Source: Stegostoma tigrinum (lineage: Eukaryota). Taken from it: a DNA stretch of 64,000 nucleotides. Positions within the stretch are counted from its first letter, which is position 1. Each line of letters starts with the position of its first letter. Of the stretch, positions 1 through 64,000 are shown in pieces. The notes below the pieces were generated by a model. It did not search any database and had not been told where the DNA came from. It worked only from the letters and a program-made list of their open reading frames with translations. The stretch is from positions 13,493,342 through 13,557,341 of the forward strand of contig NC_081391.1 in assembly GCF_030684315.1 (NCBI RefSeq). The letters run 5' to 3'. Made by a program: the position numbers and the translations under genes.

Positions 1-100
1 GTGAGATGCAGCTACCCGAGAAAAGCCAGAGAAATTTACATGACTGTTTTTTGACAAAAGAAACTTCTCAGCCTGATCAGTTGGAACTAGATAACCTGCT

Positions 101-1725
101 CTAACAAGGTGTAGAGCTGGATGAACACAGCAGGCCAAGCACCATCAGGGGGAGCAGGAAGGCTGATGTTTTGGGCCTGGACCCTTGAGAAATGGGGAGG
201 GGAAGGGGTCCCTGAAATAGGAAGGGGTGGGGAGGTGAATGGATGAGGGATAAAGAAACAGGTGGTGAGGAGACTCCGGTCTGAGGTAAGGATGGAGCCA
301 ATCAAGTCAAGTGAGTTGAGTAGGCCTGTCCGTGGAGGTGGGGATGGGATTTGAGGTGGCGGGGGTCGGCGGGAGGTTGGGTGGTGTGGGGAAGTAGGTG
401 GGAGGAAGGACGGACCAGTCGGGGAGGTGGGAACTAGCTGAGCTGTGATTGTGGGAAGGGAGATCTTTCAGCTTAAGTCCTCACTGATACCATTGGGCTG
501 CAGGGTTCCCAAGCAGAATACAAGGTGCTGTTCCTGCAACCTTTGGGTGGCATTGGAGGCCCAGAATGAACATCAACTGTCCCCTCCTGCCCCTCTGAAG
601 GGCAAGTATTTTGTGACTTGGAGGTGCAGCTGCTGGTCACGAGCCCAGCATAGGCACTCCACAAAGTGGTGTCAAGCCTCTGCTCGGATTTCCTGATGTA
701 GAGGAGGCCACATTAGGAGCAGTGGATACAGCATACCTCACTGCAGGTGTGTAGGTCCGCTTCGTCTTGATGTGGAAGGTCTTGGGGCCTGGGATGAGGG
801 GAGGTGTAGCACAATCTGTGTGGCAGGAAAAAAGCCCTGGCTAGTGGAATGTACAAGGGAATCAGTGGTCTCTCCAGAAGGCAGCTAAGGTTGGGGAGGT
901 AAAACATGTCTTTGTCAGATTGTATAAGTGCCAGAGGATGATGCACTGGATCCTGGCATTGAGGTGGTACTGAAGGATGAGAGGATTCTGTTTTGGTTGT
1001 GTGAGGGATAAGATGCAAGACCGGTTGTGTTTATCTTCCACTAAAGGGAAGTTACGCTCCCTCGGAAAACGAGGACATCTGGGATGCCCAGGAGTAGAAT
1101 GCCTCCCCTCGGGGCTGGAGGTGAAGGAATTGGATTAGGGGATGGCGTTTTCCTTCCACAGGAAGGTGGGTAAGGTGTATTCTAGGTAGCTGTAGGAGTC
1201 AGTAGGTTTGAAATATATCAAAGATTGATAGACAAACTTAAGGTTGAGGTAGAAGGCTCTAATGAATTAGAGGAACCGTTCAAGCTCCTTTGTGGGATGT
1301 AATGGAGGAAGATGTGGAGTTTATGGCCCATCTCCCTGTAGAAGGATTGTTCCACAAATCCTAACAGAAGCAGGCACAGCCTGGGCCCATGCAGGTACCT
1401 ATGGCCACCCCCTTCCTCTGTAGGAGGTGGGAGGAATTGAAGGAGAAGTTAGGGGTGAGGATGAGTTGGCTAGTGGACAAGGTTGTTGGTGAATGGGGAC
1501 CAGTCAGGCCTGCAGGATGAGAGAAGCAGAGGGCCTTCGGCTATCTCCATGGGGAATGGATGAGGTTGGAGGCTGTGGCTGGGAGGTCATCTCCAGTGAA
1601 GTTGTAAATGGACTAGGAGATGGTTTGGTGGTCAGGGGTGGAGTCATGATCAAGGGCGGGGTGGTAGGAGGTATCGGCTGCTCTTCCACACAAGTATATG
1701 TGGCACTCCAGCTCCTGGCATTTCC
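101..1725 (-). mobile_element. Degraded Penelope-like retroelement (RT + GIY-YIG remnants) in intron 1 of copy 1
   Basis: Minus strand reads GVAIGTCMGPG (~1370-1411, like the Penelope RT motif GVAMGTxMGP) and CCIHCS followed by a decayed GLLYI tract (~695-735, GIY-YIG-like). The terminal segment is shared with short elements at 5870 and 12065. Boundaries approximate. Confidence 0.65.
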
Positions 1726-2056
1726 TTAAACCCTGTTCAGTCACAAACTTCATCCAATTCTGATGGTGCTTAGAGTGGAAATGCTCTTCTCTCTACAGAC
1801 AAGAACAGGCATGGTCAATTCACAGGTTTTGGTCAAGGAATTTCAAGTTTGCCTGGTTACCAGGAGGAGGCGAGGGTTGTTTTTGATGATCCTTGAACTG
1901 GAGCCACTGGCTAATTGGACAATGGTTCTCATCCACCTTGATGTATTTAAAAAAACATGTCATGTTTATTGACTTCTCAATTTGATTGAAGGCTAAACCA
2001 GTCATGTCTGGCACCAATTGCATGATGTTTAATGGTTGTAACTTGTTTTCTCCCAG

Positions 2057-3350
2057 ATGTCCTACTTTGACCGGGATGATGTTGCCCTCCCCCATGTCTC
2101 CCAGTTCTTCCAAGATCAGTCCCAGGAGAAGCAGGAACATGCAGAGAAGCTGCTGAAATTCCAGAATCAGCGTGGAGGCAGAGTCCTCCTCCAGGATGTG
2201 AAGGCTGGTGTTGGGTTTTTGGGGTGGGGGGAGTTGGGTGGTAGAGAGTGGCTGCTCCTCAGGGATGGCACAGTGACTCAGTGTTTACCATGCATGCCTC
2301 AGTGCCAGGGATCCAAGTTTTGTTCTTGGTTCTAGGCTCCAGTGAACGACTGGAGTTTACTTGTTCTTGCCATGTCCACATTGGCTTCACGGTTCAATGA
2401 CGTGTGGGTTAGAAGGATTGCCATTTAAAATGCAGGGTTACAGGAATAAGGTGGGATTGTTCACAGAAGGGACTTGTAGCGACGAACGCAGTCGCCGTAC
2501 CTGCTGATCGGGGATGAATAAAACGATGTAGTGACCTTTGTTATTGTCACCATGTGTCAAATAGCCTGTTCCCATGCTGCAGAGATTCTGAAGCTTACCT
2601 GTCCTTCTCTCCATCCCCAGAAGCCAGAGAGGGCTGAGTGGGGTAACAGCCTGCAGGCAATGCAGGTTGCCCTGGATCTGGAGAAGAATGTGAACCAGAG
2701 TTTGCTGGATCTACACCAACTCGCCACAGCCCAGACTGACCCTCATGTGAGCTTTCCCACCTCCTCGTTCTGATCACTGCTAGGCCCTCAGGGCAACACC
2801 TCATTGGTCTTTTGTAGATTAAAATTCACTGGGATACTTTGATCACAATATCATATCTGAACAGTATGTTCATTTAATCAACATTAAAACAGCTCAGCAA
2901 TGAGCTGAAATGGGAATTTGGATTCAGTACCACGAGTGATGTTGGCCACTGAATTCACTTTCAGGGCCACTTGCAGTAGAATGATCATTGTCTGTCACAG
3001 TTCAGCTCGGCTCCACTTCACAAACAACAAGGTGCATCTGGAATGTTACTGTCCTCCCTGGCGCAACATCTAGATGTCAGTGGCTTTTCCAGCTGTCGAG
3101 AGCCAGTTATGGTGGGGTCTGTTTCGCAGTGGGAATTCTGAAAATTTCCTGGATCATGCAAATGTACCAAGTTGCCATCATTCCTCTGTTGCAGCTGTGT
3201 GACTTCCTGGAGACCCACTATTTGGATGAGGAGGTGGAGATCATCAAGCAACTTGGGGACTACATCACCAACCTGAAGCGCCTGGGAGCCCCTGAGAATG
3301 GGATGGGAGAGTACCTGTTTGACAGGCTCTCCCTGGAGGACAGCAGTTAG
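2057..3350 (+). CDS. Ferritin subunit (middle/light-chain-like), array copy 1, partial: exon 2 2057-2203, exon 3 2621-2746, exon 4 3195-3350; exon 1 lies upstream of the window
   Basis: Exons translate to [11 protein letters not shown]...LLQDVK / [11 protein letters not shown]...TDPH / [14 protein letters not shown]...[14 protein letters not shown], which are ferritin signature motifs. All have AG acceptors; the exon 2 donor is GC; AATAAA at 3478-3483. Confidence 0.9.
2261..2445 (+). mobile_element. Decayed tRNA-derived SINE (HE1-like), intron 2 of copy 1
   Basis: gggatggcacagtgactcagtg...gcctcagtgccaggga head; the same insertion is present in intron 2 of every copy. Confidence 0.55.
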
Positions 3351-4719
3351 TGTGGCCTGGAGTACTGTCTGCTTGGTCTGAATGCATTCCCCACTTCACC
3401 CTGGGCAATCTGTCTCCTTCCAGGGAGAAGGGACTTGTAGCAAAGAATGTAATGGCTGTACCAGCTGAATGCAAATGAATAAAATGATGTGTTTATCTTG
3501 GTTCTTGTTCATCATTCAGACAGCTGGACGCTGCAGGTTCTCACCAATAGGCCTATGGGAAGAGATATCAGGCTCTGCTTTCTGCCCAGGCGCAGGAAAC
3601 AGCTCAGCTGGGACTGAGATGAGTTCAACCTGACTCGTATCCTCCCAATGGGCCCTGACATGACCAGCATATTCTGTTTTACATTTGCTGCCTTTGTCTC
3701 ATGTGGACATAGCCTAAAGTTACTGGGAGCCGGTGAAGGTTCATACCAAGGCCAGTCCTGGTGGGCTGAGACCTACCCTGCCTTGTTACAGCCTACTGTA
3801 GTTGACAGCACTGAACAGTTCATTCCTCTTGTTGTGGGAGTTAAATATGCTGCTACCCTGAAGGGATCTTGGTGTAATTACCCTTAGCCTCGAGTCAATT
3901 CTCCTAGGAGCATTCTGAAGCTGGCCTAATGTGGCTTTTGTCAGTTTACTTTCTCTGACCTGTTCCAACACCTTCATTGCTTTTCTCACCCCTCCCACCA
4001 CCCCACTCCTAGCAATAAACTTCCACCCTGCCAGTCTACAGCTGGGAAAATTCAGCCCCAACATTGACAGCACCCATATTCCATGGAGTTAGCTCAGGAA
4101 ATTATCTTGAACTGTTACATGCTCATGTATGAGCTCAATACCACTTCGAGCACCATCACTGTGTCTTTTGGAGTAACACAGCAACACTGGTGGTTCAATG
4201 CTGCCATTTGATTGGCTCTTGCTGCTAAAGCCAGCATTGAGCACACTAAGCTGCTCCCTTGGTTCCTCTGTGCTTCACACACGCTGAGGGTTACTCCTGA
4301 TGAAGGTAGATTTCACCCAATCACATTGAAGCATCAGTGCGACTTGGAGAGGAGACCGTGAGATGCTGACTTTCCTGTACGACTGCTTCCTCTATCTTTT
4401 TGAGGTGTCAGAGAGATGATGGGTTGAGGAGGGGGTGATCAGAGCCAGCCTGGGGATTGTTCAAGGGAGTTGTGTAGCGAGTGCACACTGCAGCTTTCAC
4501 TGAAGGTGTGGGTCGTTCAGGCACTGAATGTATTTGTTCCACTACATGAAGTGTTTTATTTCAAATAATCTTGAGTCTTGGCTGTAGAATCTGTGAATCC
4601 GTGCAGTGCAGGAAGAGATTGTTCAGCCCATTTAGTCTGCACTGATCCTCTGTCCTCTGAACAGCATCTTGTTCAGACACACCCTGTCTTCTTGCCCCCA
4701 TCTTTCTATCCCACAGCCA

Positions 4720-63471: not shown

Positions 63472-63637
63472 GCTCCAACAGCAACGTTCAAAAGTTATGA
63501 CGAATAATCCTTCAGATTAACAATCCAACAGAATTCTGCAAATCTGTGATGACTGTGGCTTCACGCACAACCTCAGATAGAAAAGCGAAGGTTTAGAGTA
63601 TATTTTATTGTCATTTTCTGGCAAATACATTTACAGA

Positions 63638-63843
63638 ATGTGCACTTGTAGAGGAGGTCAAAGATCATTCAGCAATTCCATCATCGACCAGTTGTCAACC
63701 GTGATTCGTTTCTGGATCCAGTTCCCATCCTGCACTGATTGGACGTGGCAACTGATCAATTGATTAACAAGAGTGATTGGCCATCACTGATGATGTCATT
63801 TCCTGCTTCATAAAAAGAGGGTCAGCCCCTGGGGTATAAATAG
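63638..63843 (+). promoter_or_regulatory. Promoter of ferritin copy 9
   Basis: Same block; DR1 variant aggtcaaagatca at 63655; TATAAATA at 63835. Confidence 0.72.
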
Positions 63844-63927
63844 AGTCCCACGGGAATGATGTTGATTGTTCTTCCTAATTTTGTTATTTTGGTGGTGAGG
63901 AGAATAAAAGAAATTTATTGTCACAAG

Positions 63928-64000
63928 ATGGCCTCCCAGATCAGTCAGAACTATCACCAGGATTGTGAAGCTGCTGTCAACAAGCAGATTAATGTGGAGC
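63928..64000 (+). CDS. Ferritin subunit, copy 9, start of exon 1, truncated by the window end
   Basis: ATG GCC TCC CAG ATC AGT... = [28 protein letters not shown] at 63835; upstream region nearly identical to copy 5. Confidence 0.88.
   Translation, partial: MASQISQNYHQDCEAAVNKQINVE

Follow-up and report, generated by a model that had tools for sequence, protein, structure and literature searches.

A tandem array of nine four-exon ferritin genes occupies the 64,000-nucleotide stretch of contig NC_081391.1 of Stegostoma tigrinum that was analysed here (the window, to which all positions refer). Its copies encode a single subunit type in which the bridging residue of the ferroxidase centre is replaced by lysine. 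No iron-responsive element (IRE) was found in their putative 5' untranslated regions (UTRs), and their exons have remained much more alike than their introns. The interpretation that we favour, with modest confidence, is that the array supplies at high dosage an IRE-free, ferroxidase-poor subunit resembling the light (L) chain for ovarian or oocyte iron storage, assembled with few heavy (H) chains.

BLAST of the exons against the window places all nine units on the + strand in the same orientation, at ATG-to-ATG distances of 6.9–9.6 kb, and exon-to-exon E-values of 1e-34 or lower exclude chance similarity among them. Coding exons of 102, 147, 126 and 156 nt yield 176 amino acids in five of the seven complete units (B, C, D, E and H), and the four-exon structure, the size (~175–183 amino acids) and the conserved residues in register are those of a vertebrate cytosolic ferritin gene. 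The base composition of the window is vertebrate-like as well (GC 42–50%, CpG observed/expected 0.09–0.48 per 2 kb). Units C, D, E and H are intact, with an open reading frame (ORF), GT–AG introns and a promoter block, A and I are truncated by the window edges, and B, F and G are decaying. Both the nine co-oriented genes and this division into four, two and three had been read from the sequence alone, and stand with the refinement that A is probably damaged too. The extension of the array past both edges, also claimed in that sequence-only reading, holds in so far as A and I cross the edges, but no further genes were seen outside. As a tandem array of four-exon ferritin genes, the window matches the FTH1b clusters described in sharks, and most likely lies inside one of them. 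This match, the CpG depletion of vertebrate type and the kinds of interspersed repeats present make the cartilaginous-fish origin supposed in the sequence-only reading plausible.

Such clusters are already in the literature. Sahm et al. (bioRxiv 10.1101/2024.09.09.611499) report 155 FTL and 179 FTH1 calls in the Greenland shark, ~80% of them in three ancient clusters syntenic with the white shark; the clusters are described as syntenic across ~250 million years and >85% full length, and the largest one as ovary-specific by RNA-seq. Yang et al. (PNAS 2026, PMC13214024) report many FTH1b copies in sharks generally, with 59 in the Greenland shark in two tandem clusters, apart from the single H and L genes, and suggest a link between ferroptosis and longevity from fin and blood data. 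Therefore, the idea of an undescribed system, put forward from the sequence alone, has to be given up, since arrays of this kind are published as general in sharks, ancient, syntenic and ovary-specific; the function of the array is not established in those papers. The main texts of both contain no mention of ferroxidase, iron-responsive, gene conversion or concerted. Our literature searches, which returned mostly listings and missed the PNAS paper itself, gave no report that the ferritin arrays of sharks have lost ligands or the IRE or undergo gene conversion, and it is thus weakly shown that the ligand changes, IRE loss, common promoter and exon homogenisation, not found in the two main texts, are new detail.

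The ferroxidase ligands of the human H chain are Glu27, Tyr34, Glu62, His65, Glu107 and Gln141 (PMC7557750), and at a constant offset of 3 the four intact copies all have E24, Y31, K59, H62, E104 and E138. Four of the six ligands are kept and the centre is not the complete one of H- and M-type chains: Lys stands at the Glu62 position in 8/8 exon-2 copies and Glu at the Gln141 position in 8/8 exon-4 copies, in agreement with the one unusual subunit type with a lost ligand that the sequence-only reading had proposed. In this register K59 and E104 reproduce the L-chain pairing of Lys62 with Glu107, a salt bridge that takes the place of the iron site in that chain (PMC11396501), and Glu62Lys is reported to be enough to abolish activity in FTHL17 (review PMC7760355). 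Because Lys occupies the bridging Glu62 position and Glu that of Gln141, the array subunit should have little or no ferroxidase activity and, by inference, would work like an L chain. The channel and transit residues His118, Cys130 and Glu140 (PMC8886333) have their matches in H115, C127 and E137 at the same offset, and the L-type nucleation residues Glu53, 56, 57 and 60, which an inferred offset places at positions 54, 57, 58 and 61, are acidic at three of the four positions in C and E and at two of the four in D and H. The array copies have no N-terminal extension, which is why their subunits are predicted to be cytosolic rather than a secreted yolk ferritin. We take D128 and E131 to correspond to Asp131 and Glu134, and Glu at 141 and Leu at the four-fold channel to be L-like.

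L-rich shells paired with H chains can still lower labile iron, and this, together with the four retained ligands, counts in favour of an H-like antioxidant dosage, in which a ferroxidase-active ferritin would buffer labile iron and ferroptosis in somatic tissues. This is the published FTH1b hypothesis, argued in PMC13214024 from the common four-helix core, tissues rich in polyunsaturated fatty acids and expression in fin and blood. It is nevertheless unlikely here, as the bridging ligand is Lys in 8/8 copies, a change reported to abolish activity (PMC7760355), a quick response to iron would be impossible without an IRE, and the largest cluster of Sahm et al. (bioRxiv 10.1101/2024.09.09.611499) is ovary-specific; the main text of PMC13214024, with fin and blood as the only samples, has no mention of ferroxidase, iron-responsive, ovary or oocyte. 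The Lys substitution also brings in FTHL17, which has the same Glu62Lys, germ-cell expression and six copies in mouse (PMC7760355), and whose relatives, the FTHL loci, evolve in concert in dog (PMC5363321). An alternative is that the array encodes an iron-independent germ-line protein of that sort, a ferroxidase-null bulk ferritin that germ cells or early embryos would use for structure, storage or regulation; a title cited in PMC1488847, which names ferritin as the chief ATP-binding component in the oocytes of amphibians, would agree with it. This is the most credible of the alternatives, though still improbable: the channel and transit residues and two or three of the four nucleation positions are conserved in the array copies, which suggests that iron handling has been kept, and FTHL17 is an H-derived, X-linked mammalian gene whereas the array genes have four exons.

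A ~200-bp promoter core is common to seven units (C–I), as the dedicated promoter of the sequence-only reading implied, and consists of a direct repeat element (DR1), two inverted CCAAT boxes with an E-box between them, and a TATA box. DR1 (AGGTCAAAGGTCA), which we take to be an element of the HNF4/COUP/RXR type, is perfect in C, D, E and G and has one mismatch in F, H and I; the second inverted CCAAT is intact in C, E, G and I, and the TATA box lies at -93 to -105, being lost in F. Between the lineages of C, D, E and G the core is 5–17% different, against 27–42% on its flanks. The putative 5' UTRs, with a start inferred from the TATA position, are AU-rich and 65–77 nt long. No IRE reached the Rfam gathering score, none was among the eight matches at E<=5, all of them far below the cut-offs, and the CAGUG loop is absent from 6/6 putative 5' UTRs, so that the missing IRE of the earlier reading was found again. 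The canonical 5' UTR element of H and L regulation is therefore not seen in the array copies. As H and L mRNAs are normally repressed via this 5' IRE (PMC7760355), and none was found here, the array copies should be translated regardless of iron. No other structured RNA reached the Rfam gathering score in the window either, and cytoplasmic polyadenylation elements are present in 0/8 3' flanks within 200 nt of the stop codon, which gives no support to maternal control of that type.

Some further features lie upstream of particular units. Perfect direct repeats of AGGTCA without a spacer (DR0), presumably of the GCNF type, are found at 19453–19467 and 54500–54514, ~610 bp upstream of the ATG of D and H, and are the only two in the window. 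In unit H a second in-frame ATG directly precedes the start codon (55110–55115), and the putative 5' UTR of pseudogene G contains two ATGs ahead of the start.

The coding exons are more uniform than the history of the units would predict. Non-sister introns are 19–23% different in their BLAST-alignable parts (23–100% of each intron), while four-fold degenerate sites are 6.5–12.5% different in the same five non-sister intact pairs (binomial P 0.0025–0.038, the pairs not being independent). Units C, D and E have the same exon 1 sequence, 69 pairwise four-fold comparisons in exon 1 give 0 differences, and exon variants, transversions included, are common to different intron lineages: at exon 2 site 40, units A, C, F and H stand against B, D, E and G, and at exon 3 site 6, B groups with F. 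Pure birth-and-death evolution, in which silent exon sites would be about as diverged as introns, does not describe 5/5 non-sister intact pairs. Since the divergence of silent sites in exons is only about one third of that in introns, unequal crossing-over and gene conversion must also be at work, and the array evolves, as judged from sequence, by birth-and-death together with gene conversion confined to conserved islands, namely the exons, the 3' UTR and the promoter core. Of the birth-and-death array claimed earlier, the birth and death of copies therefore stands and its pure form does not. Selection on silent sites may also contribute to the low divergence of the exons. An RNA template for the conversion is disfavoured: intron 3 has 8–10% divergence in the first 30 columns at both of its ends and the 5' UTR is ~41% divergent, and conversion at the DNA level fits better, because the low divergence extends into the intron ends and the promoter core.

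Self-comparison of the window reveals sister blocks, A with F (90.7% identical over 3.5 kb), B with G (89.7% over 4.0 kb), D with H (87.2% over 9.0 kb) and E with I (91.5% over 2.2 kb); in the closest pairs, bins of 300–400 bp are mostly 2–12% different. Sister units differ by large indels and their block joins are chimeric. Unit F resembles A as far as exon 3 and E beyond it, the crossover lying in or beside that exon; the sister relation of D and H likewise holds as far as exon 3, but their introns 3 are unrelated. Such joins are what unequal crossing-over leaves in a sequence when it is resolved within or beside an exon, and are not the mark of uncollapsed haplotypes. Duplication of the units by haplotype or assembly is rejected as unlikely, because the divergence of the sister blocks (87–91.5% identity) and their large indels are too great for it, and the joins are chimeric. 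Retrocopies are rejected as well, as the same introns are present in every unit. Two independent switches of ancestry are thus located in or beside exon 3, in F (42124–42249) and in the pair D/H (24479–24604 and 59562–59687).

The decaying units have been damaged in different ways. In comparison with its sister G, unit B lacks ~2.4 kb, and the promoter has gone with this segment. The ORF of B is still open, but exon 3 is followed by a GC donor and 11 amino acids deviate from the majority state, Y31N being one of these changes. In unit F, exon 2 is short by 2 nt and followed by a GC donor, exon 4 has lost 1 nt at its start, and the TATA box is missing; G has in-frame stops in exons 2 and 3 and lacks 2 nt of exon 4. 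The GC donor after exon 2 is common to A and F, and intron 2 of F (~41969–42045), like that of A (see the table), also holds a duplicate of the 3' UTR end, polyadenylation signal included. Unit A is judged probably damaged because it has both features in common with F. In both units the insert comprises ~75 bp of the 3' UTR end, AATAAA and downstream bases, and adjoins the GC donor; it could act as a premature polyadenylation trap. Exon 1 of unit B (4940–5041) is ~9% different from the other copies, which differ by 0–3% among themselves; without its promoter, it may have escaped both selection and conversion.

That 3/7 complete units have decayed, that A is probably damaged, and that there are chimeras and block duplications could be explained by a mostly neutral expansion. 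Unequal crossing-over would then enlarge and shrink a recombination-prone array in which no more than one or two copies matter and copy number is not selected. Selection on the intact copies is relaxed, and conversion alone can keep redundant copies looking intact. This explanation is very improbable, however, as four intact copies from three intron lineages keep their ORF, splice sites and promoter, the ratio of non-synonymous to synonymous differences (pN/pS) is 0.17–0.40 over the six pairs of intact copies, and shark clusters are reported to be syntenic over ~250 million years and >85% full length (bioRxiv 10.1101/2024.09.09.611499).

The proposed model considers the array as a dosage device for one L-chain-like subunit. 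From the single compact promoter and the short AU-rich 5' UTR without an IRE that the intact copies have in common, the copies would be transcribed together at high level, mainly in ovary and oocytes, and translated without repression by iron regulatory proteins, so that output would follow development rather than iron level. The subunit, which by residue register keeps the three-fold channel and the transit site, along with two or three of the four acidic nucleation positions, would have little or no ferroxidase activity, with K at 62 and E at 141, and the Lys62–Glu107 salt bridge may stabilise it as in the L chain. Stable, L-rich 24-mers would then form by co-assembly with a minority of H chains and hold iron in store for a large egg and a prolonged embryonic development. 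The copies themselves turn over by unequal crossing-over, block duplication and pseudogenisation, while purifying selection and gene conversion keep exons, 3' UTR and promoter core alike as the introns drift apart. An ovarian role has precedents: a ferritin was the predominant transcript of the primary-growth coho ovary (PMC2262088), and ferritin is abundant in zebrafish follicles and also occurs in the eggs of amphibians, snails and schistosomes (PMC1488847). At zp promoters, FIGLA acts through E-boxes no more than 200 bp away (PMC1906760). A wider proposal, that shark arrays as a whole form a third, IRE-free and ferroxidase-null subunit, an amplified maternal iron store kept uniform by exon-limited conversion, is more tentative and falls short of an even chance.

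Several points weigh against the ovarian store. Its tissue assignment is carried over from another genome, where the expression of array copies in ovary was observed, and is thus inferred here; some FTH1b copies are transcribed in fin and blood (Yang et al., PMC13214024). Motifs such as CCAAT boxes and E-boxes are widespread, the copies do not all have the same E-box core, and the link of CCAAT boxes to oocyte promoters is one that we presume; the literature search gave no paper tying these boxes to promoters of fish oocytes. The IRE scans had no positive control, and with a start inferred from the TATA box an upstream non-coding exon is possible. Regarding homogenisation, the sister pair D/H has no silent-site deficit (8/63 against an intron difference of 9%, P 0.88), and part of the sharing of exon variants may be recurrent mutation, because 11/36 variable exon sites are in CpG context. 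Each intact copy has 4–8 amino-acid changes against the majority, with 25 non-synonymous and 21 synonymous codons, and therefore selection is relaxed. Finally, the DR1 element could point to liver. In a liver or other somatic bulk store the array would be the functional L-type chain of the shark, driven by DR1, which is perfect or has one mismatch in 7/7 promoter-bearing units. The transcriptome of the spiny dogfish lists a ferritin, paralogue unspecified, among its liver-unique proteins (PMC5568229), and the L chain dominates ferritin of mammalian liver and spleen (PMC11396501). We consider this quite improbable, as sharks have a separate FTL gene on another chromosome (PMC13214024), a somatic store would be expected to retain the IRE, and the largest cluster is reported as ovary-specific (bioRxiv 10.1101/2024.09.09.611499).

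Table. Ferritin units and associated elements in the window; units B to I begin at the ATG of exon 1, unit A at exon 2.
Feature	Position	Strand	Remarks
Unit A	2057..3483	+	exons 2–4 at 2057–2203, 2621–2746, 3195–3350, then 3' UTR to polyadenylation signal
Unit A exon 1	outside window, ~1.07 kb upstream	+	from comparison with sister F
Copy of ferritin 3' UTR end with AATAAA	2466..2545	+	ectopic, inside intron 2 of unit A
Unit B, decaying	4940..9668	+	exons 4940–5041, 7478–7624, 8955–9080, 9513–9668
Unit C promoter block and 5' UTR	11541..11875	+	DR1 at 11598, two inverted CCAAT, E-box, TATA at -103; no IRE
Unit C, intact	11876..16729	+	exons 11876–11977, 14335–14481, 15985–16110, 16574–16729
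Unit D promoter block and 5' UTR	19734..20065	+	DR1 at 19791, TATA at -94
Unit D, intact	20066..25224	+	exons 20066–20167, 22955–23101, 24479–24604, 25069–25224
Unit E promoter block and 5' UTR	29351..29680	+	DR1 at 29408, TATA at -93
Unit E, intact	29681..33839	+	exons 29681–29782, 31539–31685, 33094–33219, 33684–33839
Unit F promoter block	38173..38475	+	TATA box lost
Unit F, pseudogene	38476..42868	+	exons 38476–38577, 41579–41723 (-2 nt), 42124–42249, 42714–42868 (-1 nt)
Unit G promoter block and 5' UTR	46971..47312	+	DR1 at 47028
Unit G, pseudogene	47313..51455	+	exons 47313–47414, 49245–49397 (+6 nt with stop), 50740–50865 (W90 stop), 51302–51455 (-2 nt)
Unit H promoter block and 5' UTR	54784..55112	+	common promoter core
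Unit H, intact	55113..60293	+	exons 55113–55214, 58032–58178, 59562–59687, 60138–60293
Unit I promoter block and 5' UTR	63598..63927	+	2.7% different from that of E
Unit I	63928..64000	+	first 73 nt of exon 1, then window edge

Outside the ferritin exons, the window contains related, decayed retroelement fragments of the long interspersed nuclear element (LINE) type at 27.8–29.2, 62.0–63.4, 20.7–21.4 and 55.7–56.5 kb on the + strand and at 36.6–38.0 and 45.1–46.1 kb on the - strand; those at matching positions in E/I and D/H are markers of block duplication. There are 14 stop-to-stop frames of at least 150 amino acids in the window, and of four in repeats that were scanned, one, within the LINE-type fragments, matches Pfam RVT_1 and three have no match. 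No gene that flanks the array was seen in the window. A 40-bp perfect tandem duplication (2.1 copies) lies at 35509–35591, and hairpin-forming repeat remnants in intron 1 (5949–6034, 12100–12154 and 47711–47784), probably pieces of LINEs or short interspersed nuclear elements, give sub-threshold matches to microRNA families.

The printed hypothesis on ferroptosis and longevity presumes an H-like protein; the fixed Glu62Lys, the missing IRE and the common promoter make this hypothesis directly testable. If K59 and the missing IRE were general in shark arrays, the H-like, longevity-linked reading would probably be wrong. If the arrays are a maternal store, the most expanded gene family of the Greenland shark would represent egg provisioning and not longevity or the control of ferroptosis, and the number of copies would be expected to vary with egg size or reproductive mode. 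An egg store would also explain how large shark eggs are stocked with iron. It would be one more germ-line ferritin made ferroxidase-null by the Glu62Lys change, and would show cleanly, in nature, gene conversion limited to exons.

Among known systems, the array resembles the shark FTH1b clusters in that its ferritin genes have four exons separated by introns, are arranged in tandem and include both intact and truncated copies (PMC13214024); unlike the present analysis, that paper treats FTH1b as functionally FTH1a-like, and its main text has nothing on ligands, IRE, promoter or gene conversion. The clusters of Sahm et al. (bioRxiv 10.1101/2024.09.09.611499) are likewise large, tandem, mostly full-length and matched by both human H and L, but their spacing is ~35 kb per copy (4.08 Mb / 118, our own arithmetic) instead of 6.9–9.6 kb, and their main text is without residue-level or regulatory analysis.

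The array subunit shares with mammalian FTL the Lys at 62, the retained Glu107 and the predicted loss of ferroxidase, and of the acidic nucleation cluster it has two or three of the four positions. It differs in being arrayed, in keeping Glu27, Tyr34 and His65 and in having no IRE, whereas FTL is single-copy and IRE-controlled (PMC7760355). For comparison with fish and amphibian M ferritins and with oocyte or yolk ferritins, high ovarian ferritin mRNA is known in teleosts (PMC1488847, PMC2262088), and a title cited in PMC1488847 names an IRE-less schistosome ferritin; unlike the array copies, M chains keep a complete ferroxidase centre (PMC8886333). With the FTHL17 family it has in common Glu62Lys, other ligands largely kept and multiple copies (PMC7760355), and that family also has germ-cell expression and gene conversion among copies (PMC7760355, PMC5363321).

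We take 176 amino acids to be the typical length of teleost M ferritin. FTHL17 has no coding introns and the array genes have three, which sets them outside that family; FTHL17 is moreover X-linked, H-derived, unstable and partly nuclear, and the likeness of the array subunit to it is at most convergent. If the arrays do serve as a maternal store, they would be the intron-containing parallel, in sharks, of mammalian FTHL17 and the L chain.

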